From Cyanidioschyzon merolae (lineage: Eukaryota), in the NCBI GenBank assembly GCA_000091205.1, contig AP006501.2: a stretch of 64,000 nucleotides of DNA; one strand, written 5' to 3'. Shown one piece after another: positions 1,089-50,362 of this stretch. Under the pieces are notes generated by a model, which was not told the origin of the DNA, ran no database searches, and was given only the letters and a program-made list of their open reading frames with translations. Both the position numbers and the translations under genes were made by a program. Every line of letters begins with the position of its first letter. Position 1 is the stretch's first letter.

Positions 1089-2309
<1,221 letters not shown>

Positions 2310-3054
2310 CTAGACACTTGGACGAACGCTTCGCGGTCCTCGGAGCTCACAACAGAAGCTCACATGTCTGGAGCGCACACTGCCGTCTCAAAATGCAGCC
2401 GCCGTTGTGGCTGCACTGCACAAGCTTCACACCGGGCATTTGCGGCGACTAGAAAACGTAGAGGCTTTGAGGCAGCAAAGGAAAGAACAGAATATGACCG
2501 CTAACTAGCTATTCGCCAACACATTCTTCCCGCCTCTATCGTAAGGTTTTCAAGTGGGAAAAGGTTTTCGTAGTTCAGAAAGCTTACCTTCTATGCGCAC
2601 CGTCCGGCTAGTGCTTCATGCTACCAGTGGCGGGTGCAGTGGCGCGACCTGATCAGCTCGTTTGCAAAGCAATTTCACCTGGGACTAGCAGTGGGTAGGC
2701 AGCGTATCTCCGTCACCGTGGTCTCGGTGGTCTCCTAGCATAACGCCTCGCGCTGCAGAAGGCAGCACGTCTTTCTACCCAGCTTGCTGGCTCCCAGAGT
2801 GACGATGAATCCCTATTCCGTGTCGGGTGAACGACGCCTCGAGCCGACACCCTCAGCGGCATGGCAGAGCCGTTCTGTCTTCGTGCTGCATTCGCGCTAG
2901 TGGTTTAGGCGCTCCGGAGGGTGCGCACGGTAGGATCGGCGCACGAGAGAATGTACGGAAAATTCCAAAGGCGGGCGTTTTCTCGTAGCTATTTAAAAAA
3001 GAGGCGAGAAAAGGAAGCACTTGAAGTGAGCTGTGAAGTTGCATCAAGACTACT

Positions 3055-6000
3055 TCAAGTATATGCATCGAACTTCATAGATCGTGGTTCTAGAGAAATC
3101 TTACCACAAAATGAACCGCTTCGTTTCCTCTTAGTTTTCATTTTGCGAAACGCTTTTCCTTGGTATGCGGAGAGTTCCGCCCAGGTTTTCTGGGCATGCT
3201 GATCTCTCGGGGTGGGATCAATGAGGGTAACATCCGAAGAAAAGAAACGTTCCTCTTGAATCCTCCGGAAAGGTGTGTTAGCCTGGGGGACTCTCTTCGC
3301 TCTGTCGGATTTTGGGGCAGCCTGTGGGTGAGGATTCAGCTTGGAGCTAGAGGCACCAGCCACGTCGCACTGACTTTTGTCACCAGAGCCTTCTACAATG
3401 ATGCTTCCTGCTGAGTCATCTCTGGGGTCGGACAAAATGGTTTGCGTGGATGACTGACTTTTGCGCCCCATCGCAGACACGGGTTTCGTTACCCGAGGCG
3501 CCATATCAGTAGATTGCGCTAGCATTCCTGGATGGGAATCAATTTGTGATGCACTGAAAGCGCTCCCTATTTGTTCGTTTGAACTGCAAGCGCGCAGTCC
3601 ATCAAATGCGATCCCATTTCCACCGTCTTCCATCGCTGCGCGCGGCTTGTATCTAGGATCCGCATCTTTGCTAGAGTGAAGTCTCTCTGGTTTCCTGAAA
3701 CCTGCGCAAACGTTTGACTTTTGAGCTTTCGTATGGCAATTCTCAGTTAAGGAATGCCAGCTTGAACAAGGAGATCCGTGCTCTCTACGCGTTCGTTTGT
3801 CTAAAGGTTTCCCCGTATCTCTTTTCTGATGATTTTGGATCTGATTTGCACAGACTGGCAAGTCTCCTCCGTCTTGCGCATGAAACCGATATTGCTCTTC
3901 TAAAGAATCCCATTTCATCGTTTTGTTCTGGCCGACCATGAGGCTAGAGTTATGCGGTTTCGACGTATTCGAGGGTCCACACTGGACGTCGTCACTTATA
4001 CATGATTCCGTAACAGCAGCCGGAGCTGAATCCGTGCCTATTAGTACTTTTCGCTGGGAAGTACGCTCAGTGCCTTCGGCAGGGTTCTGTGATTGAGCAA
4101 CGTTCCCTTTCCGAGAGCTCGCATCCCTAGAAGCTCTGCCATTCGCGATTTCACTTCCAGCATGGTTTGTCCGAACCCCGCGATTCCGAGGGGCCTTGCC
4201 CTCACCTTCAGGGATGTGTTGCGTTGCATGTCGTCCTAATGGATTCCTTCCATGGAGCTCTCCATGAAAATATTGCGACCCGCTGGACGCAGCATTCCCT
4301 GTTCTCTGTTCCTGCACTTTCCCGGAAGCAAGATCTTCAGCATGGTAGCTGTTCATTTGCATTTTCATCTCACGCGATTCTAATGATGGACTTATTCCAT
4401 CAGTATTACCATTCGCGAGAGATCCATTGATTTCATGATAATGCCTAGATGGCTCGCATGAGCTGCCTCCAGTGGAATGCACTGATATGTTATCATTTCT
4501 GTCACAATGAGATGCTATCAGCTGATGGTCTGAGGTGTTGGGAAGGGAATCCTGGAATCGTTCCTCTATCCTGCCAGGAGCCGTGCGACTTGCTGATATC
4601 TTTCCAGGCGGAACTGGTAAATTCGGCTCGCTGCTGGTTCCAAAGTCACTCATATTCATACGCGCTGAGCATCTACTGCAGCCGCTGCTCGATGACGACT
4701 CAGAAGTCGACTCCGAAGTGGAGGACGCAACACCTGCCGTCCTCGGTGGCACCTTTCGCGCCTCCGTAGCCTCTAGTGAGCTCGATGAGCTCGATGAGCT
4801 CGACGATGTTGCCGTCGACGCTAGCGCACGCTTCGCTGAGGCCCGATGTGGCGGTTGGACGCTCCCAGCGCGCCTTGTGACTCGCTCGCCGTCGCTCGAT
4901 GACGACTCAGAAGTCGACTCCGAAGTGGAGGACGCAACACCTGCCGTCCTCGGTGGCACCTTTCGCGCCTCCGTAGCCTCTAGTGAGCTCGATGAGCTCG
5001 ATGAGCTCGACGATGTTGCCGTCGACGCTAGCGCACGCTTCGCTGAGGCCCGATGTGGCGGTTGGACGCTCCCAGCGCGCCTTGTGACTCGCTCGCCGTC
5101 GCTCGATGACGACTCAGAAGTCGATTCCGAAGTGGAGGACGCAACACCTGCCGTCCTCGGTGGCACCTTCCGCGCTTCCGTAGCCTCTAGTGAGCTCGAT
5201 GAGCTCGATGAGCTCGACGATGTTGCCGTCGACGCTAGCGCACGCTTCGCTGAGGCCCGATGTGGCGGTTGGACGCTCCCAGCGCGTCTTGTGACTCGCT
5301 CGCCGTCGCTCGACGACGACTCAGAAGTCGACTCCGAAGTGGAGGACGCAACACCTGCCGTCCTCGGTGGCACCTTTCGCGCCTCCGTAGCCTCTAGTGA
5401 GCTCGATGAGCTCGATGAGCTCGACGATGTTGCCGTCGACGCTAGCGCACGCTTCGCTGAGGCCCGATGTGGCGGTTGGACGCTCCCAGCGCGCCTTGTG
5501 ACTCGCTCGCCGTCGCTCGATGACGACTCAGAAGTCGACTCCGAAGTGGAGGACGCAACACCTGCCGTCCTCGGTGGCACCTTTCGCGCTTCCGTAGCCT
5601 CTAGTGAGCTCGATGAGCTCGATGAGCTCGACGATGTTGCCGTCGACGCTAGCGCACGCTTCGCTGAGGCCCGATGTGGCGGTTGGACGCTCCCAGCGCG
5701 CCTTGTGACTCGCTCGCCGTCGCTCGATGACGACTCAGAAGTCGACTCCGAAGTGGAGGACGCAACACCTGCCGTCCTCGGTGGCACCTTTCGCGCCTCC
5801 GTAGCCTCTAGTGAGCTCGATGAGCTCGATGAGCTCGACGATGTTGCCGTCGACGCTAGCGCACGCTTCGCTGAGGCCCGATGTGGCGGTTGGACGCTCC
5901 CAGCGCGCCTTGTGACTCGCTCGCCGTCGCTCGATGACGACTCAGAAGTCGATTCCGAAGTGGAGGACGCAACACCTGCCGTCCTCGGTGGCACCTTTCG

Positions 6001-14065: not shown

Positions 14066-15940
14066 TTGCTCTCCGTTCTTCACGTGCAGTATTCTCAAAT
14101 CACGCGTTCTTCATGTTTTAGTCTTTCTTCTTCAAGGTACTTCGGGGGTTCTGCAATGTGCCCCGATGGATTGGTGAGGAACAACATGAGATGTCGACCT
14201 TTGACGACTTGTTCACAAGGTCATGCCGAAAGTCAGCTGAACCTTCCACGCCAAGTAATAAATTCTGTACGAAAGACATGTCCTTCTCTATTTGCAAATT
14301 ACGAAGAAACCGTATTTTACAACAGCACAATGGTTCCCAGAGAATATGCTCCCAGCGGCTTTCGTCTCTTGTGCTTTAATGGAAACGGGTCTTGGACCCG
14401 GGCCTCTCTCGAAAAGGCATTTGGGCCATCGTCACTGCCATCACCAACGATCGGCAGCATGAACAGGCGAAAGAATTTTTCGACAAGAAGACATCACGCA
14501 GGGGAAAGAATGAAGCTTATGTGATCGGTTCGGCTATTCAAGAGTACCGTGCGGTCTTGGGGCTAGCGAATCTCGCAGAAAAGTCATCAGATATGAAAAA
14601 AAGGTGATGAAATGCGCTGTCCCCTCATCCTGCGCTATTTCTTGTTCTTTGACCGAGAACTCGAAGACAAGGCCGGAAAGGAGCTGGGTGTAGGAAAAAA
14701 AGAAGAGTCGGAGAGACAGAAGGCTGCCCTAATGGGGAAGCGCTTCAAGGTCGTTCCGTTATGCAACATCAAGTCATACTTTGTGACAATCAACTCCAGA
14801 GTCTATTTCGGCATCATGAGGGATATCTATGAGGAGTTCGGCGTAAACAGGGAGGAGTTCAGCGGCGAAAATCGGGACACGTACCGGAAGAGTATCTTCT
14901 ATTTAAAAAGTGTCAAAACGAGCAAGCAAAAGAAATTCACATGGATGGTCGAAAGCGATGAAGTATCCATGTGTGTACACTTTCGGCGCTTGAAGGCGAA
15001 TCGTCCTGTTCCGTCCTCGGCTTCGCCCCTGAGGAAGCATGCAGAAAAGAAAGAGGCGGATCCTGCTACGCAGAAAGTGCAGGATAACGACTTTGTCGTT
15101 GGCGCGGACCCAGGGGACACGAATATAATAGCCATCGCAGTATCGAAGCGTATGGTAGATGTGACTGACGGCAACTTACGTCATAAAGACATGCGTCTCT
15201 TAAAGTTCTCGAGAACGAGATATCACCGAGAATCGGGAATAATGAGTGCGAGGGAAAAAATTTAGGAAGAGAATTCAGGAGTGAAAGAGCGCCTGGAAGC
15301 TATGAGCGAGGTGACTAGCCGAAAAGCGGACTTTCGAGCTTTTCTGAAATTCATGGAAGTTCGCGTTGCTCTTTGGGAGGCGCTGTGGAAAGAGTATACA
15401 AAGCCACGATGGGCTCGTTTGTGAATGAGCTTGTACTGTGTGAAGCAGCGGGCATTCGCCAACTTTTTCAATGAGTTGAGTGCCTTGAAAGAGGACGAGA
15501 GTCAAAGGCACGTAGTAGCATTCGGAGCAGGGTGCTGGGCATCGAAAAAATGGTGTACACCAGCTCCAACGACGAGAACGTACAAGGAGCGTGCACGGCG
15601 TTTTGCCACAATACCAATAGATGAGTTCCAATCGTCCAGTATTCACCATGAGTTGGGATGTACACTTCAGACGGTCGAGATGGATTAGTGTCAGCGGCGC
15701 GGTGACGATATAAAACAGTACGGAGCGCTGACGGAAGAGCAAATGGAAAGGACGGCGAAAGTTCGAGGATTGCTTACGTTAGTGAGTACAACCACCGGGA
15801 GGAAACGTGTGAAGTTTGTGAACAGGGAATTTAACGCCGCCATCAATATAAGGAGATGTGCGGTGATGGAAATAAGACCTCCAGAGTTGACAAGAGTGAA
15901 TTTTTGGGAGAACCTCTCAAATTATACGAGAAGAAATTGA
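14066..15940 (+). pseudogene. TnpB/Fanzor-like RuvC-fold nuclease gene (OrfB-type, IS200/605/607-like), copy A. One continuous reading frame interrupted by five in-frame stop codons.
   Basis: All ORF pieces (14066-14524, 14612-15265, 15425-15688, 15743-15940) lie in the same frame. They are separated only by stops at about 14522 (TGA), 14594 (TGA), 15263 (TAG), 15422 (TGA) and 15689 (TAG). The segments between the stops translate to sensible protein. It has a RuvC-I-like motif FVVGADPGDTNIIAIAV (about 15092-15140), a pre-zinc-finger block RRFATIPIDEFQSSSIHHELGC, and a RuvC-III-like motif KFVNREFNAAINIRR (about 15809-15856). Length (about 620 aa) fits TnpB/Fanzor. Confidence 0.55.
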
Positions 15941-16091
15941 AGCCAGTAGTAAGTGGCCAGTCTAAAAAGGCTGGGAAGCGTCTGCACATCGGCTGGAGAC
16001 GTCTAGCGTAGAGCGCGAGGCGCGCAACTACTGCACCGCTGGTGGCAACGTCTGACTTTTGAGGCGTTCGTTATTGCCAGCGTTGGCTGTG

Positions 16092-20681: not shown

Positions 20682-20960
20682 AGGCGTGAGTGCTGCTACC
20701 GCGCTAACTAGGTACGCTACTTTGGGTTAAGCGTACTCGCCGCGTCACAGGTGCACGTCCGAGAACCTCAAACGGCAGTCACAGGAGACATATTCAAAGA
20801 GACTGGTAAACTAGTTTCATTTTGCCCTTATTTCGGCCCAGTAGGTGCTTTCTAAATACGAAACTCCCCGGACGCAAGCACAGCAAAAATAAAACCCACA
20901 AGCGAAAGAATCTAATAGATGCTAATCTGAGGAGCGAAAATCGTATCAAAACCATAGTGG

Positions 20961-22466
20961 TCAATAAATGTATTCACGCGCAGACGATTCCCAGCCTTTT
21001 TCGACCGGCAGACTGCTGTCGGCCGGTCGAAAAATGTACACTTCGGGTCTGCGAGGCTTCCACACGAAGTTAGATCGCCTCAGCTCTGCGGCCCTCGTCT
21101 CCAGCACCGCAAATCGTCTGATATTAATAGCAGTGCTGAAGTCTCGGTTCACAAACTCCATGCGTTTGTTGCCGCTGGTTGAACTCACTAGTCTAAGGAT
21201 TCCTCGAACTCGAGCGCTCAGTGCCATTTGGTGCTCTGTCAACTCTGCGTGATTTTCTATCGCCGAGCCGCTCCACCGGCTCCTCTCCATCTCGTTCTTC
21301 TGAAGTATACGCACAGTTCATCCAAAGGGTTTTTTTCCTGAAACGAACGTACTTCCTCCCGTCCTTAAGTCAGGAGTTTCCCGGAGGATCGAAAGACTTG
21401 GAAAGTAAAGACAAAATGTGTCCCGATGTGTTACCGTGTGCTGAAAGCTTCAGCGATTCGCCCACTAGAACGATCACTACGTTTCACGATAGAAAACACT
21501 CCTTCGATGAGCTTTAACGACCGAGCGCATGCAGAGATAGAAAGCAGCTCTTCCCCGATTGCATTGGTAAAAGCTCAAACGCAAGAAGAATGGTGAAATA
21601 CCACGTTTTCCAATAGAATGACGTCGCTGGACGTCAGGAGAAAGTCTTCAATGATTCGCCAAAGTGGTCGGTGCTGTTGTATGAGCCTTTTCGATGAGCG
21701 AAACTGAGGCCGCAAAATGAATCTACTGCAGTTAGAACAGATAATGATGTCCTCGTTCTCATCGAGCTCGATCGTACATACAATGCGATTCCTCTCCGCA
21801 AATACTCATACACGCTTCGAGCGTATCGTTTGAAGTAAGTCATATTGACTGAAGAAACAAACCGACGTCCCCGTGCTTCATACCGATCGCGACGTGTCAG
21901 GACTTGTGTTCGAGCGATTCGGCGGAAGATGGCCATGCATGCATTTGGACTTTTTTTGCGACTGGATCTCAGTATTTTGATGACCACATATACAGTCTGG
22001 TGTGAAACAGGAACACCAGTAGTAAATCGTATCGACGCCTTTTGCTTTCCCTAGAGTGATCAACGGATCGTCTTCTAGCGTTGAGAGCAATCATGCTTTA
22101 AGAATATCGATTTTGGCACGAAATGCTTTCAATCTTTTCTTTCAGTGTTCCACCACCATCTGTGTTCTCCGCTACGAATGAGCTGAAGGTAAATGCAGTC
22201 CTCGTTGCAATTTTCAGTAAATGATATATCTTGTAAGCAATTCGTCTGTGATCTATGCGGTACATTGATCTGTAATATCCATCTCCATCTAGACAACACA
22301 GCGGAGCCGAAACAGAATTGAGTTGAAAGCCGCTCGCGTACGGCACTGAGCGCCGCGCACGCAATTTCGGGATTCCTTGCGCGTTGCAGACCGCACTCTG
22401 CAGTTGAACGCGTTGAGGCCAGTGGACGCATTCATAGTGTCGAGTGCGTGGACGTATTGTTTGCAT
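20961..22466 (-). pseudogene. TnpB/Fanzor-like RuvC nuclease gene, copy B, degenerate (frameshifts, catalytic-site substitutions)
   Basis: RuvC-III-like MEFVNRDFSTAINIRR sits at about 21122-21160 (-). A homolog of the copy A pre-zinc-finger block (YEARGRRFVSSVNMTYFKRY versus YKERARRFATIPIDEFQSS) is in ORF 21634-21987. A possible RuvC-I remnant FVAENTDGGGT is in ORF 22098-22466. The pieces lie in different frames. Confidence 0.45.
20997..21034. other. Perfect 13-bp-stem inverted repeat (hairpin) with 12-nt loop inside the 3' end of Fanzor-like copy B
   Basis: Read directly from the sequence: tttttcgaccggc (20997-21009), loop agactgctgtcg, then gccggtcgaaaaa (21022-21034). The second arm is the exact reverse complement of the first. 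Confidence 0.9.
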
Positions 22467-26571: not shown

Positions 26572-29500
26572 GCGCCGGCGCCTGCAGTGCTTGGCTTTCT
26601 CGAGTAGCTGCTATGTGCTCCGGGCAGAGGTGGCGAATAGAGCAGGAACCAAGCTCGCCAAAAAACGGAAGCGAGCTCCTGAGTTATTTCCTGGTTTTTT
26701 ACGAACACTATGGAGGTATTCCAATTCTTTGTTCAGGTTTCGGATCGTGGCCAGCACTGACGGCGGCAGCAGTAAGCCCGTGCGCTCAGCATAGCAATAA
26801 GCGGGCTCAAGGTCGTCATCACGACTAGATGCTCCCTAATCAGAATAATGACTTGCTGAGCTGATAGCCTTCACTGCATTCACCCTCAATATTGGATGCT
26901 GACTACCTCATGCACATCGTCGCCTCTTTGATCGATGGGAAAGCGGCGCTATCATACTGCTGTCCCATGGATTTCCGACGAGAAACTCTCGAAAGCGGTC
27001 CGGTTTCGTGAAAAGATAGAATGGTGCATCTTTTTGACGGAAATATGATGCTTCCAACACTTGCAAGGCCAGACGTTGCGACATTGTTTCAGACGTAATC
27101 CACACGGGCCGAGCAGCATCTGCAGAAAGCTGGATTCGCGCAACCGACCAGAGAGACATCTTCTGTACTTCTGTCCCTTCTCGGCTGAATCTGGGAACCC
27201 ACTCACACACTATATAAAGTCGCTTAATTGGGATCAGGCTTTCTTAGATTCTCTTGATTGTTTTAATAAAACGACTTGCAGCTCGCACTAATTGTGGAGT
27301 CGTTTGCGTGGCTCTCCGTTGCAGAGCGGAGTTACGCGACAGCCCAAAACATTCATGATGTTCTACATACAGCTGTGAGTTATAGAACGCGTCTCCAAAT
27401 AAACCTTGTTCTTTTGCTCGTTTCTCTCACAGATATCGAAAACCAGGAATGCATCGTTGGACTGAAGAATGGACGCGGAATTTTTTTTGCTTTAAGTGCT
27501 GGCTGGCAGTTGAAAGCCTCAGATTTTCGAGTACTTCGTGCTTCGCTCAGCTAGTGGATGAGCGAACCTTCTTGTTGTCAATCTCTTGAACATTGTCTAC
27601 TCTTGAAAAAGATCAAATCAAAACCTATCCAGATGACTGGCTCCTCAGCAATCCATTCCACCCCAGACTCTCGCTCAAAAAAATAAATGCGAGAGGAGCC
27701 ACAGGATCCGAGTTTTCCCGTTCTTTGACGTGAACCATGATAAAGCGACACGCTTGGAGAACGAAAATGGGACCCTTCTATTCGAGACAGGCGCGCGTGA
27801 AACAACACACCATCGACTTCGTCCTGAAACGCGAATGCGTATTTCGAGAGGCAAGGGCGGTGATCTCGCTCAACGAGACTCCCTTCGGAAGCGATGATGG
27901 TCCTTTGCGTGGGCGCCCAGAGGGCGGCAAATTACTGTTCATGAAGGAAACGCTGGCGGGAATGATCGCAGCATCAGCGCTAGCGGGGATTCAGTCGAAT
28001 GTTCGCCGCCAAATCGCCAAACGGAAAGAATCGTCCAACACCGCATCATAGGTTGAACCACTCTTCGTGGCTTCTTTTCCGCGAACTCATCCATCCTGCT
28101 CTCGCACAACATAGCTTTCCACCGCCCATATGGTGTCGTCTAACACGCTGCTTGCATTCATGTTGGGCTGCTCCTCGTGCCGGTCTCTACTTCGTGGTAT
28201 GATCGAGTCGAACGCGCATTCTATGGCATCAAACGCTCTGTTGACGCTCACGAATCTCTAGACATGTCACTCGAACCGTCGCACCGTTCTTAAACAAGTC
28301 GTGCTCTCCCTTCATCTGCCATGAACTGCTGTGTTGCTTTAGTGCTCGTGCGCGGTATGGAGGTGAAATACGCTCCACGGTCCGTGAATATTCTCGCAAC
28401 CGAGCGGATCACCAGAGGATTCCTGAGGAGGAGGAGTAGATACATATACACCTACGCAGCAGAAGGCGGACTCGGTCCCACCGTCCATCAAGCGCGTCTG
28501 AGCTCCTAGGGGACAAACGTCCATGATATACAGCGCCGAAATCCAAGCCATCTCGCCGAGCAGATGTGAAGAAGGGAAACGCCACTGGGCAGAGAAAAGG
28601 AGGGTTCCCTTGAATAGAGGACTACGAGGGAGAGGACGGAAAATCTGCCGGAGCTGAAAGACCAGTCTGAAAGCGTTGTCAGGTCTTTTTTACCAAAACA
28701 TATTAACCTGGAGCATTCCCAGAAATTGAAGAGAATGACTTCAGTGGGAAGAGCGCAGCTTCACACACAAGGAAGGCTCACCTGATATTTCTCGCATTGA
28801 CGCACGTCGTCAAGCAGCATATCGTGGGAGTTCCGGACGCAGTGCTGCCAGCTGTCCACATTCTTATCGAAAGTTTTCATCATATCTTCCTGAGAAAATG
28901 CAGATGATGCTCTTGTCAGAAGGTTCACTGCGCTCCGATCGTTGGATCCGAGTTTTGGACACCCGCTATCCAGCACGCCTACAAGCATCCCCGCGCCAGT
29001 CAACGATCGGAACATCTAAAGCACAGGTACCAGAAGCCATCGAAGCAATCTCATGAAACGAAACCATTCGTGGGTTAATGTCGAGCGCTTCATGAGGCGG
29101 ACACTGTTGGTATTGTTGCAGTTGTACGCTTATTCCACTGGTCCGGAATTGTAGGAACTGATGCAAAGGGTTCCCGAGGTGTCGATAGATGAGAATGACG
29201 AGCTCGTGACGAAAGAGCTCGTGACGGTCGCGAGTTCTGAAGGGATATCGCAGTGAGAGAGAGAGAGTCGCAACGATGTTCCAAGCTAGCATCAAATGGC
29301 TAAGGTTTGTGGCACTTGTGCCCATCGCACTTGCTGGTGTCTCTCAGATGCTGCATGCGCATGCCCATGAAAGCTTTTGGTGCAGAAGCAGCCTCAAGAA
29401 GATCCGGAAAGTATACAATACGACCGATAGAGCATCAGGCGTCTGCAAAAGTGGTATATCAACAAGTATCAACTATGCTCGCGAACACTGGAGCTTCTTG

Positions 29501-39418: not shown

Positions 39419-42400
39419 TCCAGCAGGTTCCAACGCGAGGTCAGCGCTGACGCCTGTACGACCAAAGTTTCTGCTCTACACCAATGAATCCGGCGTCCCG
39501 GAAAACCAGTGAACGCACTCGAGTCCCAGTGAACAACGATCACGACTTAAGTTGTCTCCGAGGTACACTACTTTGCTCGGGAAGCGTCTCTACACTCAGA
39601 GCTTATTTGAAAAGATAACCGAACGTTGCGCCTGCGTGCGCTTCCGATAGCAGTAAAGTCACAAACTCACCCACAACCTGTGCGCTCTTGTTATCCAGCG
39701 TTTGGTTTTCTCTAGTCCGCAGGCGCGCTGCAAAGTTTCCTTCAAGGGCACTGAGGCGTCGACCAAAACGCGTGTACTGGACTCGGGCGGTCTCGCACGC
39801 GTCGCAAAGACGTTCCAGTAGGCGGCAACTCCGGTTCGAAACCGTGCCTAAGAACACGATAGAGTGCTCGCTAAAACGAACCCGGACAGCCCCTCGTCAG
39901 CAATGGAGCAGTACACACCTGGAACAGCGGCAGATATTGCTTCCAAGTCGTGAGAAACGACAGACAACGTTCGACGATGTTGTCCCACAGACACGGCGCA
40001 TTGGTTGCGAAACACTACCCACCGAATCGACTATGCAAGTAGTTCCGATCCAAACACGATTTCAATGTGAAACGTAATTCCACGGAGGCATCAACATACA
40101 TCCTAACACTTGCGTGCATGTCAAGCGGTGCTGCAATACTGTGGTATTTAGACTGATCGAAGCAGTAGCTGCACTCTTTAAAGGAGCCACAGTATGCTCG
40201 AAGATGTCTCTATGTTCTCTGAGGGAACCTCGCTACGTTCGACTTCTCCAGGCTTACCAGGTACCCCGAGAGCATTGCAAATCGAATACAGCGGTGCCCG
40301 TGTTTCAATGAATTTTTTGTGACACATGATCGCTGCATGATCACTGGAAGCTCAGATTCTTCTATGGACGCATATTCGAGAGCACATTGGCTCTCGTGCC
40401 TGGTCTCCGCAGATTTTGTTCCGCCTCCTTGTGTGCACGGAGTAAATCTCTACATATCTAGTCCAGAACGTTCTCTGGACTTTGTCTTTTGCCTCAAACG
40501 ACGGGAAACCCTTGCCCTTGCGGCAGCGAGTCGATTCCCACGCAAAGATACTGCGCGAACTCGGAAGCAGGAATGGTTCAGCCGTTCTGTGCATATATTC
40601 TTTTTCGTCGTAACTACTTTGCATGTAGGGGCATTTAGTTTGGCGCACTTAGCTTCGGAATCGTCTCTATGCAGCGAAATGAGCCTCGCTGCGGAATATG
40701 GCGCTAGCGGCGGCTCAGGAGCGATCGCTGAGACTTATAGACCCTGGACGCCACCAGCTAGGGTGCGCAGCCATGGACGATAGCCATGTACAGGCTCATG
40801 GTTGGTTACGGGCCCATGACTAGACGCTGCTGCAGATGTGTCGTGAGCCATCATTCAGAAAGAATTTGATCAATATGTTTTCTCCAGGATTGCAGCGTGA
40901 CGATGTATCTGTTATCCGCGCGTAGCGATTTCGGCGTGCGATGTGTCCTCAGATGCCTTGCGACATCAAAATGAATTGAGGCGAAAGAAGCGGTGAGAGT
41001 GTCCCACTCGTACGTCCCATAGCGAAAACAGCGACGCGGCTGGCAGTTTGAGGCCCTTTTTCGGAGACTCCGAGGCACCCATACCATTCGTATCTAGAAG
41101 GCAGCTACTGCAGGCCTGCAGAGGTACTCCATTTTCGGCAAGTCGTTGAGCAGGGTTCTAAACAACGCGACAAGCTTGAATTCTTTCCGAACTGTGTACG
41201 CAGGTTTCTCAAACAATGGAACACCCTTATTGCTCGCAGACTGTGCACCGAAATCGTTCCCAATATGTGTCCAGAGGGCGCTCCAGCCTTTATAGTTTGC
41301 CATCCGCACCGAACAAATAGCGTAATCCAGGCGAAAATCCAATGCTCGAGCTCCTGGTCACAGATACTCTGCACCGCAAGTCGTCAGCATTCCAGCACAA
41401 TGCCTATTCTGAGTACGAAACAAGTTCGTCGAAACTTCGCCGACACAGAGCCACTGGGGCGCTCCGGAAGCACGAAGCATCTCCGCTTCTTGATTGAAAC
41501 GTTGAAGTCGCAGTGGGGAAAGCGCCAGCTCGTATCGTTGCTAGTGGAAGTACCCCATGGGCATTCGCTTACCTTCGAATTCATCGCCATCTGACGTTCA
41601 GTCTCTTACAATACAGCACCGCATGCGTCCGTCTTCGCCTCATGCCCTTCGTCTCTGGATGTTAAAGCGTTCACCCGAGCTCATTCTTCGTGCACACCGA
41701 CTTGAATGCATCCGCTGGAATCGTGCAGAATCGATTCCTGAACTCGTTCTACGCTCTAGCCAAAGGAGCGAGAGCGCGGTCTGCGCGCGTTACAGCACGT
41801 CCGGCTCCTTGGGGTACTACGAAACCGCTCGGATGCCCGGTCATTTTATGTTCCGACGAATCCAGCAAGTCAGCGAATGCCCACTTTTGATCATTGTACA
41901 CCCGAAACCGTTGGTGACCTCAGCGCGAGCGCATGCATTCCTGCGAAAAGTCGTCCACATGAGGGATTAGGCGCTCCTATTTGCTCTGAATGAAGCTTTG
42001 GACGCACTCTGTCAGCTCGATACGATGATCAGCGCGTTGAAAAGGGTCCAGGTGCCGTCGTTCCACTTGCGGATGCGCCTGCTTGCGTTCCTGCTCCCGA
42101 CCCGAGATACGAAAAGGCCCGCGCAATCTTCAGCAGCTTCATCTGGTTTCTGCTTAGTTTTTTTGGCTCCATTCTCTTGAGTCAGGGGCACGACGGCGGT
42201 TACGATGCTCATAGACGTGGAATCTTCGCTCACCACGTGGTGCTCCGCTTCGTCTACGCTGAGCAGCGAGGCAGAGTCTCGGTGCTCGACTCTGGCCTGG
42301 GATGGCACAAAGTGCTTACAGATCGATATCATCGAATAGACGCCTGAGGAGGCTAGCATGCTCGCTTACGTGGCAGGAGTCTGTCTTTCTCTGGAAGGCT

Positions 42401-44715
42401 CTGTTCAGCGGAGCCTAGTCGCGCAATTGGCAGTTCAGGAAGACGTCTCCTTGCAACCGTCCACTGGAGACGTGACTTGGGTCCGTCCGAGGCCAACAAG
42501 ACGACGACGAGCTTGGACAAGCGGAAGCGACACAGACGCTCTCTCTCGCTCGCCGTGACTTGTCATCCGATATCGCCACCACACTGAGCTCTTTCTGCCA
42601 CCACTAGCGCTTTATTCGCTTCCATCGACGCACCAAGAATCCCTTAGATTCGTCCCAGTTATCCTTGGGTGGCAACACGAGGCTGCAACAACCAGGTGGA
42701 GCGCCCCGCCAAGCGCTCGAGGTCGATCTGCATTTCGCTGTTGAGGTTTGTTTGATCATGGATGACACTTGCGCTTCAGATGCTGCGATCGCCGACGTAG
42801 TGAAGTGATATCTCACGGTATTCTGGGGAGCTTGGGTGCAAATCTCGGATCCTGCGATCAGTTCGTAGTGCATCTTCTGTCCAGAGCACCATCTGTGTGA
42901 TCACAACAGGGTCTGACGGAAAGATTCCTGTGAAATGTGGACAACTGGTAGCGCTGCGTACGCAACTGTTATGAACATCTGCTTGACGAGGAGCGTTAAG
43001 GCGAAGAAAGCCAGACGAGACGTCTTTGACAAGAAAGGTATGCGATTCGGAATGGCTTGTAACAAATTACTTTTTGGAGAATGCTATCTTTCCTTGTGAT
43101 TTTGCAGGGAGGCATTCACAGTTGCTCCATACTGATATTTTTCGCTCCGACAGGTTTTCGTCCCTATCTCTGCTTATCCTTTATCGGATCCATCTTTTTG
43201 TTCATTGTCCGGTGGGTTCTTCTCCTTTTCCTCCACAGGCGAGACGGCTGTGATACAGTTGCTGTTCTCTAAAGGTTTTTTCCTCATGATAGAAACACAT
43301 TGGGTACAAGACGGAAGAGAAATTTCTGTCTTCTGAATGTATGTATGCATGCATGATTCTATATGTCCCTTTCTGTCACGTCCATCACCCGAACGCGCGA
43401 GGACGGATTCCCACACTTCCGCTCCAGCTCGGGTCCGAGCGGAGAAGCACCGTGGCGGCTCAAGGATGGTGAAGGTACAGAACAGTTGTCGAATAATCAT
43501 ATCAAGAATGCGAACCAGTCTTCTGTTGATCTATGAGTGAAAAGTTCACAGTTGACAACAGAGAGGCAGCCTTCGACTGGACTGCATCCAGTGGGAATGT
43601 GATGACACGAAGAGCCGCTGGACGCAAGTCTCAGCCGTATATTTCCTCGACCAATGTTGAGAGAACGAAAATGACCTTTTCTTGGAGCAGGACTGAAGAA
43701 TGTGTGATAGACAATGCACGAAGTCTTTCGTTTTAGGATGAGGTGTTGAACGGCCGTGTCTGTAAAGCGCTTATAATGCGGCCACAATGTAATCTGCGTT
43801 AGGGCACTTGTCGTCATTCTCGCTCGTCTTTCATCTATGATCAGCGGTAATACCCTTTCTGAGCACCCATCGTCAGCTCTGCCATTTGTGTCGAATACAG
43901 TCCTATCGATTGAGATGAGAAACCGTCACTTTTGCAGTACGCGTCTGCTTTCCAGGACGAAATCAGTGATGAGTCTCTCAGCGCCCTTTAGTCAACGGTA
44001 GAAACGTGCTGTTCTCTTCGTCTATCCGCGTCTCTCTATCCTTGTTTTCGTCAACAGGGGGGGGGGGAGAACTTCACATGGGGTGCTTCTATTTTAGTAG
44101 TTCTCAACGAACATATGGAATAGAATGGAATATCGGGGAGGCCGTCGTGCAGAGAGAATCTGACAGGTTCTGCGTGGGTGCAAGAGCATCAGCATACGGA
44201 CGGCGGAAAGCGTGGATCATCCACTTGCTTATCTAAGACTAACAAAATTATTGAAGTAGGGCAGTTTATTACAAGATAGCTGGTACCGCATAAAACCTTT
44301 CCCCAACCTTTCCTCAATCTGCATGACGTCTTCCAGATGTTGAACACCTGCGAGCAAACAAACACACACGAAAGCGTTATGGGCGTGCAGGTGTTGCGGG
44401 CTGTACTGCTCTGGGTATAGCTTGAGCAGCTCTGGTCCAATAGACCGTGAAAGGTCCATGTATCCTCTTTATTAGGGCCTGAATGGCCACCAGCAAGGCG
44501 TTTCTTTCAAGTGCCCCGCTCCACAGTGCGATGGTGCGAAGCGCGCGCGCCCCATTGGCCAAACGGCCAACTTCTTGGCCCTCATGAGCCCCGAGCACGT
44601 GTAACCAGTAGAGACTGCGTTTTCAACGTGAAACTACAAGTATTTGTCGGTAGAGCGATCGTTGTCGTACTTGTTGATCAGCGCCCGTCTTCTGGAAGCG
44701 AGCCCGCTCGTGCTC

Positions 44716-47677: not shown

Positions 47678-49099
47678 TCATGTGAGCTTGTCATGTTCGG
47701 GCTCAGTAAGAGGGAAAGCCTCAACAAGAGAACCTCCTTGATGCCAGCGGGGAGGCAAGCAGCGCTTAGTGCTCGATGAACTTTGCGCCCAGAGCAAGCG
47801 CATAGGGTACACACACAGACGCCCAGTGCAACAAAAACATTCCACGACCGTGTAGGGGTAATGAATACCCATGGGCAGACGCCTCCGGGCGTTTGTCGGC
47901 CCCTCCCCTGCTCCTGGCTTCAGCTTCTCTTTGTGCACTTCGACCATGACACACTGCCCTGCAAATTTGAGTAGTGTAAGCTCCTCGAGTCTCGTCCTCA
48001 GCACCGCATATCTTATGATATTGATGGCGTTGTTGAAGTCTCGGTTCACAAAGTCCATGCGCTTGTCGCTTCTGGTGGAACTTTGCAATGCGGGGAGTCT
48101 TCGAAATCGCGACCTCTATGCCGTTCGCGGCTTTGTCAGCTCGCCGTGCTTTTGTATCCTCAAAACGATCCGTTGGCTTTTCTCTGTCACAACTTTCTGG
48201 AGTGTCCACCTCAGCCCAATCTTTATATTTTGAAAATGAATGCACTTTTTTATGCAATTTGATGAGTACCTTTCCGAAGGGAGAAGAACTTGCGGAAGAA
48301 AGACCACATATGCCCTGGTGCCACCGTGTGCTGAACGCTTCAGTGGTTCGCCCAGTGGAGTGATCATAGCGTTTCACGACAGAAAACATTCCTTCCATGG
48401 TGTTGAGCCACGAGGTGTGCGGAGGAATCAAAAGCAGCGCTACCCCGATAGAATCGGCAAATGGTCGAATGCAAGGCGATGGTGAAATGCCGCGTTGTCC
48501 GGTAGAAAGACGTCGCCGGACGTCAGAGAACAGTCTTCAACGGTTCGACAATGTGAATGCAGCTGTGCGAGCCTTCTCTAAGAGCGAAGCTGAGGCGACC
48601 AAATGAATCCGCTGCATCTAGAGGAGATGATGGTATCCTCGTTCTCTACGAGTTCCATCGTTTTTAGAACGGGTTCCCTTCACCCCGAATATTTATGCAC
48701 ACTCCGCCGGCATCAACTGAAGGAATTCCGGGCGACTGAAGAAATAAAGCCACGTCACTGTGTATTATACCCATCAAGACGTTCCAGGAACGCTTTAGTT
48801 GCGATTTCGGTGGAAGATGGCTGCGCACGGACGAGGACTCGTTTTTTCGACCATATCTTAGTGTTTCCAGGACCACTCGAACAATATGTTGGGCAACAGA
48901 GACACCTGTAGTTCCTACTATCGCTGCTTTTGCTTTCCTTATGATGATAAACAGGTCGTTTTCTACCATTGATCGCAGGCAGTCTTCGAGAATATCGGTT
49001 TTTAACGCGGATCGCGAAACCTCCTTTGTTTCCGTATTCCTCAATCATCTGCCTACTGTGGTAGACTGACCTGAATGAGGAATGCAGGCCTCCTTGCAA
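47678..49099 (-). pseudogene. TnpB/Fanzor-like RuvC nuclease gene, copy C, degenerate (frameshifts; RuvC-I Asp replaced)
   Basis: RuvC-III-like MDFVNRDFNNAINIIR sits at about 48005-48052 (-). The RuvC-I region VLVRAQPSSTEIATKA aligns with VVGADPGDTNIIAIA of copy A, with the catalytic D changed to Q. A block at about 48310-48650 is roughly three-quarters identical by eye to copy B 21418-21760. Confidence 0.4.
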
Positions 49100-50362
49100 T
49101 GTTCAGTAAACAACGTATATCCGTCAGGCAACTCATCAACGATCTATACAGTCCAATGCATGGTGATGTGGATCGCCTCTTATCCACTTCAAAAAAGCAT
49201 TCAACGGCACGCAGCCGAGGTGAAACAGAAATGAGTTCAAGGTACGCTTCGTACGCGCGCCCTGCCTTTACAGCGTCGAGGATCGAACGCTATATTTTAT
49301 TACTTTTTTGTCGTTTTCTGTGTGTGTTCGAGGCAACGCTTGCTGGAGTTGAACTGAACGCTCAGATATGGCCCTTGGTCGTTTTCCAAGCTCGTACACA
49401 ACGAGCGCCGGCACCTCTAGAGGTAGCGGCGGGGCTGGCTTACTACCGTTCTCTCAAGAGCCGTTGGTTGAACCGCGCGTCCTACAGCGGGCGATTCAGA
49501 ACCGAATAACACGAAGGCGAATTCGTTTGGTTGGAGATTCACTCGTGCTTGTGTGCTCTGTTGCTGTAGCCGCTTCAATACTTGGGAGGACTTACCAACT
49601 GTACTCAGAAAGTAGTAATAGGTCGGCAAAGTAGAAAGTCGACGCCTCGCCTAGATCAGCATTTGCTGCAAAACTTTCGTTCTTGATGCGCGGCAGGTTG
49701 TTGCTGCTTTCATCCTGCTGTGCCTAGGCAACTCAACGGCTAAAGTATGTTGAACTATACGCGTTTATGTTTTTGTTGCTCGCGAGCTGGTTTTGCGAAC
49801 AAACCTGGTTTTTTCAGAATAGTTGAAGGATCGTTTGGAAGTAACACTCGTTCGTATCCATTCGAAGCAGATTCCGGTGCAGGGTGCCCACATGAAACAA
49901 TTCGTTCGCTTCGCATATTCCTGCTTCAGATGGAGTTCTGCCACGCCTCGACACAGAGGCGCGTTTCGAGTTCGGCAGAACTGGTCTGCGTTGCGACAGT
50001 ACACCCTGGAGTCGCAACTGGCATCGGAGGCATCTCGTAGGCGGTTGTTTTTCTGCCCGCGAAGTGAACGCTTCTGCTCCAAAGTCTTGGGTACCCAGAT
50101 TTCGACTGGAGTGTGAGCACTTCTCAGCGAGAGCGACATTTGGCCCCTGGTTCTCCATGAACTCGAGTAATCGTAGCTGATAGACATGTAAGTGCGGCGC
50201 TGGCTGTCTGGCGAGCGGAAAGCTGATGTATAGAGCGCGAGCCGTCTCTGTCAGTTAGCACTGACTTGGCATCTCTGCGTTCAGCCGATTCTCTTCTTCA
50301 ACTTTCACGAATGTCAGACTTAAATAGAATGATTCCGCACAGGGCACTTCAGCGCTTACACT

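Follow-up and report, generated by a model that had tools for sequence, protein, structure and literature searches.

Two decayed elements of Cyanidioschyzon merolae as probable Fanzor-deleted relics of an IS630/Tc1-mariner transposon

In this study, we examined two relics, copies B and C, in a 64-kb window of nuclear DNA of Cyanidioschyzon merolae 10D (the whole stretch analysed, in which the host proteins were identical to C. merolae 10D entries). Copies B and C are very probably ancient and dead derivatives of an IS630/Tc1-mariner transposon that had carried a Fanzor1 gene as cargo and from which most of this gene was deleted. The original prediction had treated both as decayed full-length copies of a RuvC-nuclease family represented in the same window by copy A. 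Their relationship to copy A was confirmed for the RuvC-III end and did not extend to the whole length of the nuclease. The RuvC-nuclease family is the Fanzor1 element CMe-1A (its Repbase name) of C. merolae, with ~150 copies and a consensus of 3,169 bp (Bao & Jurka 2013, Mob DNA 4:12, PMC3627910), in agreement with the predicted multi-copy, transposon-borne nature of the family; B and C were likewise decayed and intergenic as expected, and family copies were found in both orientations. The limits of B and C (Table 1) were placed where column identity in an alignment of 20 copies jumped from ~0.5 to ~0.8, and differ somewhat from those initially assigned.

Table 1. Positions of Fanzor-related and transposase-related relics in the 64-kb window.
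Feature	Coordinates	Strand	Description
Copy A	14389..16062	+	5'-truncated CMe-1A element, consensus 1486-3163 at 84% over 1.68 kb
Copy B, whole element	20927..22331	-	~1.4 kb; limits from 20-copy alignment and sequence reading
B transposase pseudogene	21386..22265	-	IS630/Tc1-mariner (DDE_3); transposase residues 1-294, frameshifts and stops
B Fanzor1 C-terminal remnant	21036..21311	-	RuvC-III, FVNRDFSTAINIRR; one frame, family-profile positions 619-711
B end of Fanzor frame and 3' tail	20927..21035	-	decayed class II terminal hairpin region, ends ...CTCAG
Copy C, whole element	47824..49242	-	~1.4 kb; layout as in B
C transposase pseudogene	48271..49086	-	IS630-type; residues 28-293; tblastn and profile
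C Fanzor 5'UTR scrap	48222..48248	-	27 nt; CMe-1A consensus 868-894, 89% identity
C Fanzor1 C-terminal remnant	47873..48218	-	FVNRDFNNAINIIR; profile positions 617-731, one in-frame stop
Copy D	41429..44054	-	strongly decayed full composite; transposase remnant 43800-44054, near-full-length Fanzor remnant 41429-43170
Copy F	27605..29118	+	transposase remnant 27605-28272, then weak Fanzor N-terminal remnant 28609-29118
TE-N2_CMe-like repeat	2482..2960	-	matches CMe-1A 5' module, consensus 133-636, 74%

Copies B and C share 69% nucleotide identity over 1,188 bp in blastn (21094-22267 vs 47991-49158). To delimit their Fanzor part, we used the CMe-1A consensus and a profile of 733 positions built from 61 intact relatives of copy A. 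The match was limited to profile positions 617-731 and, at the nucleotide level, to consensus 2738-3088, and neither the profile nor the consensus searches detected Fanzor sequence upstream of profile position 617 or consensus 2737 in either copy. In hmmsearch, the E-values for this end were 4.6e-24 for B and 2.4e-23 for C, and the RuvC-III signature with its Asp was present within the matches as predicted, reading NRDFSTAINI in B (minus-strand ORF 20961-21314) and NRDFNNAINI in C (minus-strand ORF 47678-48088). By blastn, B was 74% identical to consensus 2749-3020, plus 34 nt elsewhere, and C was 70% identical to consensus 2738-2970, plus 27 nt elsewhere; a tblastx comparison of B with copy A gave 3e-23. 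The RuvC-I Asp (G.DPG) and the RuvC-II Glu with the [TS][TS] motif were absent from both copies. Identity of ~80% along the 3,169-bp consensus, which marks CMe-1A members, was found for copy A and not for B or C. Judged from sequence, the Fanzor part of B and C is therefore the last ~100 codons (RuvC-III) and the 3' tail, plus a scrap of the 5'UTR. In copy B, the tail holds consensus 3055-3088 at window positions 20976-21009, and a 17-bp palindrome peculiar to this copy lies at 20997-21034.

The other ~900 bp, about two thirds of each copy, is on sequence grounds an IS630/Tc1-mariner (DDE_3, DD34E) transposase pseudogene. A relative was found on a brine-metagenome contig (L019), the 302-aa transposase of which is intact and was recognised as an NCBIfam IS630 transposase (119.7 bits, cut-off 100). 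A profile built from this protein and a stitched metagenomic copy (copy E) only gave E-values of 1.9e-29 and 6e-15 for B, and 2.6e-28, 8.9e-16 and 1.6e-11 for C. In tblastn, B matched the L019 transposase with E = 8e-18, including MYRIDHRRIAYKIYHLL vs MYPLDRRRIASHIYALL at residues 1-24. The stitched copy E itself scored 32 bits on Pfam DDE_3 (E = 1.3e-7, cut-off 28.6) and matched the L019 protein with E = 2e-25 over 245 residues. Copy C keeps LPDNAAFHH followed, after 34 residues, by LNTMEG, and with them two of the three DD34E residues, the second Asp and the Glu. Copy B has the decayed form VNMTY in place of the first catalytic Asp motif and no longer has the PPYSP region. A consensus of 20 copies, B and C included, reached 100.5 bits on NCBIfam NF033545 (cut-off 100) and 56.9 bits on Pfam DDE_3 (E = 2.9e-15, cut-off 28.6), and displayed the complete triad as FSVDETCF (DET), LLLDNVAFHH and, 34 residues on, NPIEG. 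The N-terminal HTH_Tnp_Tc3_2 domain was matched below its cut-off of 31.5 bits by both this consensus (20 bits, E = 7.9e-4) and the L019 protein (25.5 bits, E = 1.6e-5). When A, B and C were searched against Pfam as single ORF fragments or as unprocessed frame translations, a weak DDE_3 hint in C (E = 0.034) was the sole result; the homologue search with stitched C returned two decayed ORFs only, and a PDB sequence search with the stitched transposase found no match.

These assignments change the meaning of several motifs. VNMTY had been read as a degenerate form of the RuvC-II motif IDEF of copy A; RRFVSSVNMTYFKRY aligns instead to RSFVSVDETSFGRNG, the D-E-T region around the first catalytic Asp of the intact IS630-type transposase. 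RAQPSS, taken for the GADPGD of RuvC-I, falls in the linker between the HTH and DDE domains of the transposase. The block of ~350 bp common to the two copies (21418-21760 and 48310-48650) is indeed homologous between them; it is the transposase catalytic core, with the DNAAFHH and LNTMEG motifs of C, and not a zinc-finger insertion that would define a B/C sub-lineage. The frameshifts noticed earlier mostly affect the transposase pseudogene, and in both copies the Fanzor remnant is in a single frame. Neither B nor C has an intact ORF. They are unable to encode an active enzyme, and at present they most likely do nothing.

Copy A, the reference for the original comparison, comprises Fanzor residues 171-732 and has no transposase part. 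Its reading frame is interrupted by several stops, and it shifts near 14600 and again close to the 3' end. An alternative genetic code was considered for the stops and rejected, as they are a mixture of TAG and TGA and the host genes are normal under the standard code. Copy A keeps GADPGD (RuvC-I Asp) and IDEFQSS (RuvC-II Glu and [TS][TS]), both of which are also found in the family consensus, and its RuvC-III motif reads NREF, with the Asp changed to Glu. Bao & Jurka described the Fanzor1 motif as D-X(125,275)-[TS][TS]-X-X-C4 zinc finger-X(5,50)-RD (PMC3627910). The CMe-1 consensus and its relatives read TSYTHHELGCTLQRVEMEKCQ...LLALVSTT, with two Cys and two His only and the second CxxC missing, so that a C4 zinc finger is lacking in the whole CMe-1 family and not in B and C alone. 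We compared 14 members of the CMe-1 family by hhalign with the C-terminal half of a green-algal Fanzor1 (the protein preceding CMe-1 in the protein file of PMC3627910). The alignment covered 214 collinear columns with E = 5.7e-5 and a probability of 66%, and paired GLDPG with GADPG and IDEFLTS with VDEFRTS, which gives moderate support to the suggestion that the CMe-1 family is homologous to an accepted Fanzor1 protein. The only Pfam label of the nuclease family was DUF8286, and it was weak; a PDB search with the 14-sequence Fanzor profile gave no match, and the AlphaFold2 model of an intact relative (P0055, 61-sequence alignment) was poor, with a mean pLDDT of 52 and a pTM of 0.39.

The window turned out to be richer in such relics than the three copies initially counted: it contains five relics related to Fanzor (A, B, C, D and F) and one TE-N2_CMe-like piece, which together make up ~14% of its length. 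In B, C, D and F alike, a transposase remnant lies directly upstream of a Fanzor remnant. Copy D was supported on the Fanzor side by profile E-values of 4.4e-16, 1.1e-10 and 3.3e-5 and on the transposase side by 4.1e-6 (profile) and 2.4e-6 (tblastn). The transposase of copy F was detected by tblastn with the L019 protein (E = 1.5e-20) and by the profile (6.8e-8 and 2.7e-7), and its Fanzor match was weak (iE = 0.005).

The order within copy B is 5' leader, IS630-type transposase pseudogene, Fanzor 5'UTR scrap, Fanzor C-terminal remnant and class II 3' tail. To see how general this architecture is, we analyzed metagenomic loci picked by an exact RuvC-III DNA pattern, which yielded at least 120 loci whose proportions are therefore biased. 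At least 20 distinct loci (B, C and 18 metagenomic ones) combine a transposase with a Fanzor tail in the same order and orientation, with the same 5' and 3' limits and just two types of junction. At least seven of them, B and C among them, resume at consensus 2737-2762, and in ~12 others among those listed the sequence includes consensus 868-~970 and continues from ~2833-2850. The 5'UTR scrap, which matches consensus 868-894/947, delimits the internal deletion on the left in C, where its local alignment score was 39 against a shuffle maximum of 30. The two junction types are two independent internal deletions, each of which was amplified later. Thus RuvC-I and RuvC-II were not lost by point mutation, as the original prediction had it; they went with an internal deletion of consensus ~895-2737 common to at least seven independent loci.

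Other loci retain both genes. The L019 contig encodes both proteins intact and on one strand, the transposase first and, 157 bp downstream, a 699-aa relative of the nuclease; each is homologous to its red-algal counterpart. Complete transposase and Fanzor composites were also found at three further metagenomic loci (L061, L074 and L104). An intact transposase ORF of the B/C lineage was not found in any red-algal copy examined, and none of the 32 transposase-plus-tail units (20 distinct loci) among the matches listed had an ORF of at least 290 aa. One metagenomic locus (L094) is the copy C locus in another strain, and several metagenomic contigs have copies A and B in identical positions. These contigs are 99.7-99.8% identical over 21.6 kb and therefore belong to the same species, and they are uninformative both on the age of the copies and as empty-site controls.

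On the observed homologies, architecture, shared junctions and decay rests the following history. The ancestor would have been a composite of a 5' leader, a DD34E transposase gene, a Fanzor1 gene encoding a TnpB-like RuvC nuclease, and a 3' end. In the B/C lineage, an internal deletion of CMe-1A consensus ~895 to ~2737 would have removed nearly the whole nuclease gene, but would have spared its last ~100 codons, the 5'UTR scrap, the 3' tail and the transposase gene. With its own transposase gene still in place, this Fanzor-less derivative was presumably mobile, probably by ordinary cut-and-paste transposition into putative TA targets, and the presence of one junction at seven independent loci indicates that it multiplied after the deletion; every copy would then have decayed. 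From the 20-copy transposase consensus, which still has three stops, we infer that the transposase-bearing element was autonomous. By analogy with TnpB and characterised Fanzors, the cargo may have aided persistence of the element through guide-RNA-directed cleavage.

CMe-1A appears to be the reciprocal, transposase-deleted derivative, which would have lost the transposase ORF but kept its leader, Fanzor gene and 3' end. As published, it is ~3.2 kb long, with a 5' TE-N2_CMe module (a family also given in the same paper) and a 734-aa Fanzor ORF, and in 2013 it was left unclassified, without transposase and without TIRs (PMC3627910). The leader of B/C/E-type elements matches CMe-1A consensus 786-840 (z = 5.6, 0 of 200 shuffles as high), a match that is strong for copy E only and marginal for B (z = 2.0). 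With matches to both the leader and the 5'UTR scrap, CMe-1A would thus lack just the transposase ORF; consensus 1-870 showed no homology to the transposase part beyond the leader. The composite model leaves over ~785 further bp at the 5' end of CMe-1A (TE-N2_CMe and more).

Terminal inverted repeats and a TA target-site duplication are hallmarks of IS630/Tc1-mariner elements. The accompanying transposase, which the original prediction had proposed to look for, proved to be the key to the case; the terminal repeats and duplications sought with it were not demonstrated. A search of B, C and E for an inverted repeat joining both ends found none. The sequence is TTA|CAGTC at many 5' ends and CACTG|A(C/T) at 3' ends, and a short motif, TCGTTC(A/C)AC, occurs near both ends and also internally. 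TA precedes the 5' end in ~8 of 18 copies, and the 3' end is followed by A(C/T) and not by TA.

Could B and C nevertheless be decayed copies of the whole nuclease gene, with RuvC-I and RuvC-II erased by substitutions and a common 350-bp insertion in the zinc finger? Homology to copy A is genuine for RuvC-III and the ~100 codons around it, and a length of ~1.4-1.5 kb is near that of a truncated nuclease gene. However, the nuclease match stops at profile position 617, the part upstream of it matches IS630-type transposases with E = 1e-15 to 1e-29, collinear with the intact protein from residue 1, and the motifs taken for degenerate catalytic sites pair with transposase positions, so that we regard this explanation as extremely improbable. 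Even less credit, close to none, is due to the idea of a host gene, domesticated or conserved in synteny: the shared positions of A and B in metagenomic contigs might suggest it, but those contigs are of the same species, and dozens of paralogous copies as decayed as the ORF-less B and C lie at unrelated loci. The composites could alternatively be accidental, with an unrelated IS630-type transposon inserted in or beside a CMe-1 fragment and no single mobile unit. TE relics do cluster and nest here, as in the inverted TE-N2 piece just 3' of copy E or the two back-to-back Fanzor tails in L070 and L092, and the composite ends have no clear inverted repeats. Against this stand the uniform order, orientation and limits of at least 20 distinct loci with two junction types only, and the intact homologous pair on the brine-metagenome contig. 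Moreover, no inverted repeats flank the transposase ORF internally, and CMe-1A keeps sequence from either side of the missing ORF. We consider such a coincidence very unlikely.

A further explanation, compatible with a Fanzor-deleted transposon, is that two independent deletion lineages retained the ~330 bp at the Fanzor 3' end because these serve both as guide RNA gene (omegaRNA/fRNA) and as transposon end; Fanzor-less elements could then borrow the Fanzor protein from CMe-1A copies. The guide RNA of characterised Fanzors comes from the 3' end of the gene, abutting the right end of the transposon, and fRNA copies without an ORF are known in Chlamydomonas (Jiang et al. 2023, PMC10530073). Both deletion subfamilies retain at least consensus ~2850 to the end, and the class II tail consensus can be drawn with two hairpins, GGGTA..TACCC and GTGGAACG..CGTTCCAC. 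Nevertheless, RNAalifold found no consensus structure in the class II tails and a single 4-bp hairpin in those of class I, and the covariation of the two hairpins was within the range of shuffles (103/500 for cells paired, 221/500 for the covariation score). The 3' end was no more conserved than the transposase part, either in sliding identity along B, C and E or in the 20-copy alignment, and a cis-acting transposase-binding site would explain the retained end equally well. Rfam and tRNA scans of the window returned no match. A guide-RNA role of the tail is unlikely, and so is a reciprocal partnership of two elements, in which an IS630-type transposon with a 'guide-only' module would use the CMe-1A Fanzor in trans and CMe-1A would use its transposase. 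The weaker novelty, an IS630/Tc1-mariner classification of CMe-1A, is more likely than this partnership.

As Fanzor-deleted derivatives, B and C can be compared with known systems. Deleted copies of P, Ac/Ds and mariner are internal-deletion derivatives of cut-and-paste transposons that arise from abortive gap repair. B and C resemble them in keeping the ends and losing the interior, and in forming several independent classes, each amplified; however, the classical derivatives usually lose the transposase, whereas B and C lost the Fanzor cargo and kept the transposase, CMe-1A being the opposite case. CMe-1A belongs to the same genome and nuclease lineage, and B and C have its last ~270-340 bp (70-74%), its 5'UTR scrap and probably its leader. 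They differ from it by the IS630-type transposase pseudogene, by the lack of ~1.8 kb of the Fanzor gene and of the TE-N2 module, and by the sequence after the shared GGGAGGCGTCTGC block (class II tail). Fanzor1 elements borne by Mariner/Tc1 transposons include PUl-1 of Pythium ultimum and PGv-1 of Phaeocystis globosa virus (PMC3627910), and such associations were also reported by Jiang et al. 2023 (PMC10530073). In PUl-1 and PGv-1, as here, a DDE_3-type transposase gene with the LPPYSP.LNP.E motif comes first and Fanzor1 second on one strand, but these elements have defined TIRs of 24-33 bp, TA duplications and complete Fanzor genes, whereas only the 3' end of Fanzor is left in B and C. The ORF-less guide RNA copies of Chlamydomonas reinhardtii (PMC10530073) are similar in that a Fanzor 3' end occurs in many copies without a nuclease ORF; they are, however, highly conserved and their RNA was sequenced, whereas the C. 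merolae copies are decayed (~70% identity) and no conserved fold was found in them.

The significance of these results is modest: the nuclease family was published in 2013, Fanzor1 on Mariner-type transposons was already known, and B and C are dead. They illustrate that a RuvC-III motif by itself is no evidence of a whole nuclease gene. In the older relics of the window and in metagenomic copies, the Fanzor lineage of CMe-1A is physically linked to an IS630-family transposase, and B/C-type relics may therefore supply the IS630/Tc1-mariner classification that CMe-1A did not have. The genome of C. merolae is famous for its few repeats, and much of its intergenic DNA may be old Fanzor/IS630 debris.

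Copies B and C, taken in the original prediction for decayed copies of the RuvC nuclease of copy A, were 69% identical to each other over 1,188 bp in nucleotide alignment (21094-22267 against 47991-49158), and by tblastx more than 1 kb was matched between them, with shifting frames. The alignment of A with B was limited to ~210 bp and a 30-nt patch, and no translated match of A to B or C extended past the ~80 codons surrounding the RuvC-III motif (tblastx, 3e-23 and 2e-13). A search with the conceptually translated copy A yielded 61 relatives of 55-75% identity and at most 752 aa, almost all of them coming from JGI metagenomes, and the family profile built from their sequences matched B and C at positions 617-731 of 733 only (E = 4.6e-24 and 2.4e-23). 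The assignment of B and C to the family of A held for the homologous RuvC-III end, where both previously quoted peptides were present, and their decay was real, but the profile match stopped there.

The nuclease family of A is the already published CMe-1A family, and the proposed multi-copy mobile family is real. In C. merolae ~150 copies were described, with ~80% identity between each copy and a 3,169-bp consensus that encodes a 734-aa Fanzor1 protein, without TIRs, a determinable target duplication or a classification; the 5′ 635 bp of the consensus are another repeat, TE-N2_CMe (Bao & Jurka 2013, PMC3627910). Fanzor1 membership was indicated by this publication, by the motifs GADPG, VDEFRTS and NRDFNAAINI, and by profile comparison with a green-algal Fanzor1 from the literature (hhalign E = 5.7e-5 over 214 collinear columns). 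In the CMe-1 lineage the canonical C4 zinc finger has degenerated; a PDB sequence search with the family gave no match and the AlphaFold model of a family relative was too poor for use. We took the consensus from the supplementary file of the 2013 paper and mapped it on the window; the TE-N2_CMe-like repeat found there is isolated, neither a Fanzor nor a transposase part lying close by.

Relics in the window and the parts of the CMe-1A consensus mapped to them
Feature	Window position (strand)	Consensus positions	Identity
A	14389-16062 (+)	1486-3163	84%
B	~20927-22331 (-)	2749-3020 and 3055-3088	74%
C	~47824-49242 (-)	2738-2970 and a 27-nt piece, 868-894	70%
D	41429-44054 (-)		
F	27605-29118 (+)		
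TE-N2_CMe-like repeat	2482-2960 (-)	133-636 (TE-N2 module)	74%

We also noticed that over 14594-15919 A reads mostly in one frame, which in-frame TAG and TGA stops interrupt; the frame changes only around 14600 and close to the 3′ end. In A the RuvC-III Asp has become Glu (NREF); the Asp is kept in B and C, though these are more decayed. Within the end of the Fanzor frame of B lies a 17-bp palindrome (20997-21034; TTTTTCGACCGGCAGAC / GTCGGCCGGTCGAAAAA, 94% complementary), which is missing from the consensus and from C and is thus probably a chance product of decay. Two better-preserved metagenomic CMe-1A copies (L017:7221-7376 and L018:6540-6621) contain a 79-bp unit (consensus 2117-2195) two or three times in tandem, giving repeated ...PATQEVQDNDLVV... 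segments just N-terminal of the RuvC-I motif. At the 3′ ends of CMe-1A copies, for example A and these two (window 16063-16075, L017:8400-8412, L018:7648-7660), similarity seems to run ~10 nt past the published consensus end, with GGCG followed by TTYGTTRTTGG or GTGGTGGTG, and the true CMe-1A 3′ terminus may be located a little beyond that end.

The remainder of B and C is made up by the remnant of an IS630-type transposase, the accompanying gene for which a check had been proposed. The C peptide LLLIPPHTSWLNTMEGMFSVVKR gave a weak Pfam DDE_3 match, and we therefore searched with the stitched translation of C, which retrieved P0115, an ORF of copy E in a hot-spring metagenome (L004:4750-6119); stitched across one frameshift, E yielded 270 aa with a DDE_3 match of E = 1.3e-7 (32 bits, cut-off 28.6). 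Among the intact Fanzor relatives, P0055 (699 aa) is the most divergent; it lies on the 3.7-kb contig L019, where an intact 302-aa transposase stands 157 bp upstream on the same strand, the only intact transposase-plus-Fanzor pair among the matches listed. This transposase carries HTH_Tnp_Tc3_2 and DDE_3 domains, belongs to the IS630 family by NCBIfam (119.7 bits, cut-off 100) and aligned with stitched E over 245 residues (E = 2e-25). Both partners are distant from the red-algal sequences, with only 28% identity to E for the transposase and only 39% to the A query for the Fanzor. L019 comes from a brine metagenome (JGI 3300000575), not an acidic hot spring, and ends 32 bp past the Fanzor stop.

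By tblastn, the alignment of the L019 transposase with B started at the N-terminal residues of the protein (MYRIDHRRIAYKIYHLL against MYPLDRRRIASHIYALL) and reached residue 294, and that with C covered residues 28-292; a profile built from L019 and E only gave 1.9e-29 for B and 2.6e-28 for C. A spacing of 34 residues, as in DD34E, separates the second Asp (DNAAFHH) of C from its Glu (LNTMEG). The anatomy first proposed for B and C was misread, the observation itself being partly right: VNMTY is not a lost RuvC position but comes from the D-E-T at the transposase's first catalytic Asp, here decayed (RRFVSSVNMTY against RSFVSVDETSF), RAQPSS falls in the stretch linking the HTH to the DDE domain, and the ~350-bp block shared by B and C and absent from A is the transposase catalytic core rather than an insertion.

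The composite of transposase and Fanzor is a unit, not an accident. Beyond the three copies counted originally, profile searches revealed D, with a near-full-length, much more decayed Fanzor remnant (41429-43170, -) and a transposase match directly upstream (43800-44039), and F, with a transposase match at 27698-28272 followed by a weak Fanzor N-terminal match (iE = 0.005). A transposase remnant thus lies directly 5′ on the same strand in four of the five Fanzor relics of the window. D was seen at the protein-profile level only, not by blastn to the consensus; the IS630-type remnant of F gave a tblastn E = 1.5e-20. A metagenome scan by the RuvC-III DNA motif returned at least 120 loci; among the matches listed, 91 of 120 had Fanzor and 32 transposase profile matches, and L061, L074 and L104 were full composites with a near-complete Fanzor. 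At least 32 units, collapsing to at least 20 distinct loci with B, C and E counted, had a Fanzor remnant, starting at profile position 613-649, no more than 700 bp downstream of a transposase. In the alignment of 20 copies, column identity rose at a single 5′ position (...TATAGTCTTTCAACTCAATT...), from ~0.5 to ~0.8, and dropped again after ...CGTTCCACTGA, defining an element of ~1.48 kb. In its majority consensus the transposase frame was almost open, interrupted by three stops, and the triad read DET / DNVAFHH / 34 residues / NPIEG (NCBIfam IS630, 100.5 bits against 100; DDE_3 E = 2.9e-15); among the matches listed, no individual copy had an intact transposase ORF. Later insertion of an unrelated IS630 element is argued against by the lack of internal inverted repeats flanking the transposase ORF.

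No terminal inverted repeat, for which a check had likewise been proposed, was found to join the two element ends. The Tc1-like sequence TTA|CAGTC stood at many 5′ ends and CACTG|A(C/T) at the 3′ ends, so no TA duplication was demonstrable. Related contigs over B and A were 99.7-99.8% identical to the window, hence from the same species, and provided no empty site. After a shared block, GGGAGGCGTCTGC, the tails fell into two classes: class I, of CMe-1A type, carries a nearly invariant CGCCACTACTGTACAC, and the tails of B, C and most of the copies that bear a transposase belong to class II, whose consensus contains two hairpins. In Fanzors that have been characterised, the guide comes from the 3′ end, abutting the transposon end, and ORF-less guide copies exist in Chlamydomonas (Jiang et al. 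2023, PMC10530073). A guide-RNA reading of the tail gained no support but may still hold: Rfam gave no match, RNAalifold almost no consensus structure on the tails, the two class II hairpins no more covariation than shuffled controls, and tail conservation was no higher than that of the transposase part.

Each of the 20 loci was then mapped to CMe-1A. Among the matches listed, seven, with B and C among them, resumed at consensus 2737-2762; of these C, and B more weakly, kept only 868-894 before the junction. Another ~12, including E, kept 868-~970 and resumed at ~2833-2850. Neither class is derivable from the other; the two represent independent internal deletions of the full composite, each multiplied later. 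Having kept the transposase, the Fanzor-less elements were presumably autonomous, in agreement with the general dispensability of TnpB/Fanzor for transposition. The leader of the transposase-bearing elements matched consensus 786-840 (E, z = 5.6, 0/200 shuffles as high; marginal in B, z = 2.0) and the sequence just past the transposase stop matched 868 onward; CMe-1A thus appears to be this element after clean loss of its transposase ORF. The ~785 bp of extra 5′ sequence in CMe-1A (TE-N2_CMe and more) lie outside the reach of this deletion model. TE-N2_CMe sequence was also seen inverted just 3′ of E (L004:6214-6455) and, in L048 (unit start 8654), directly oriented and ~210 bp away on the 5′ side of the element, resembling the CMe-1A layout.

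B and C are dead copies, with the Fanzor deleted, of an IS630/Tc1-mariner-type transposon whose former cargo was the CMe-1 Fanzor1 nuclease, and both family and kind are already known. The transposase-bearing subfamily, and CMe-1A as its probable transposase-deleted sibling, are absent from the 2013 description (PMC3627910) and may already be in Repbase. By exact-sequence look-up of five long ORFs of the window, four were identical to proteins of strain 10D (ClpB BAM82758, mitochondrial intermediate peptidase BAM82761, CMS135C and a kinase); the DNA is red-algal nuclear DNA with very few introns, hence the long unbroken host ORFs. The C. merolae genome is usually described as very TE-poor. The six relics sum to ~9 kb, 14% of the 64-kb window, and a large part of the intergenic DNA of C. 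merolae may be old debris of one element family.
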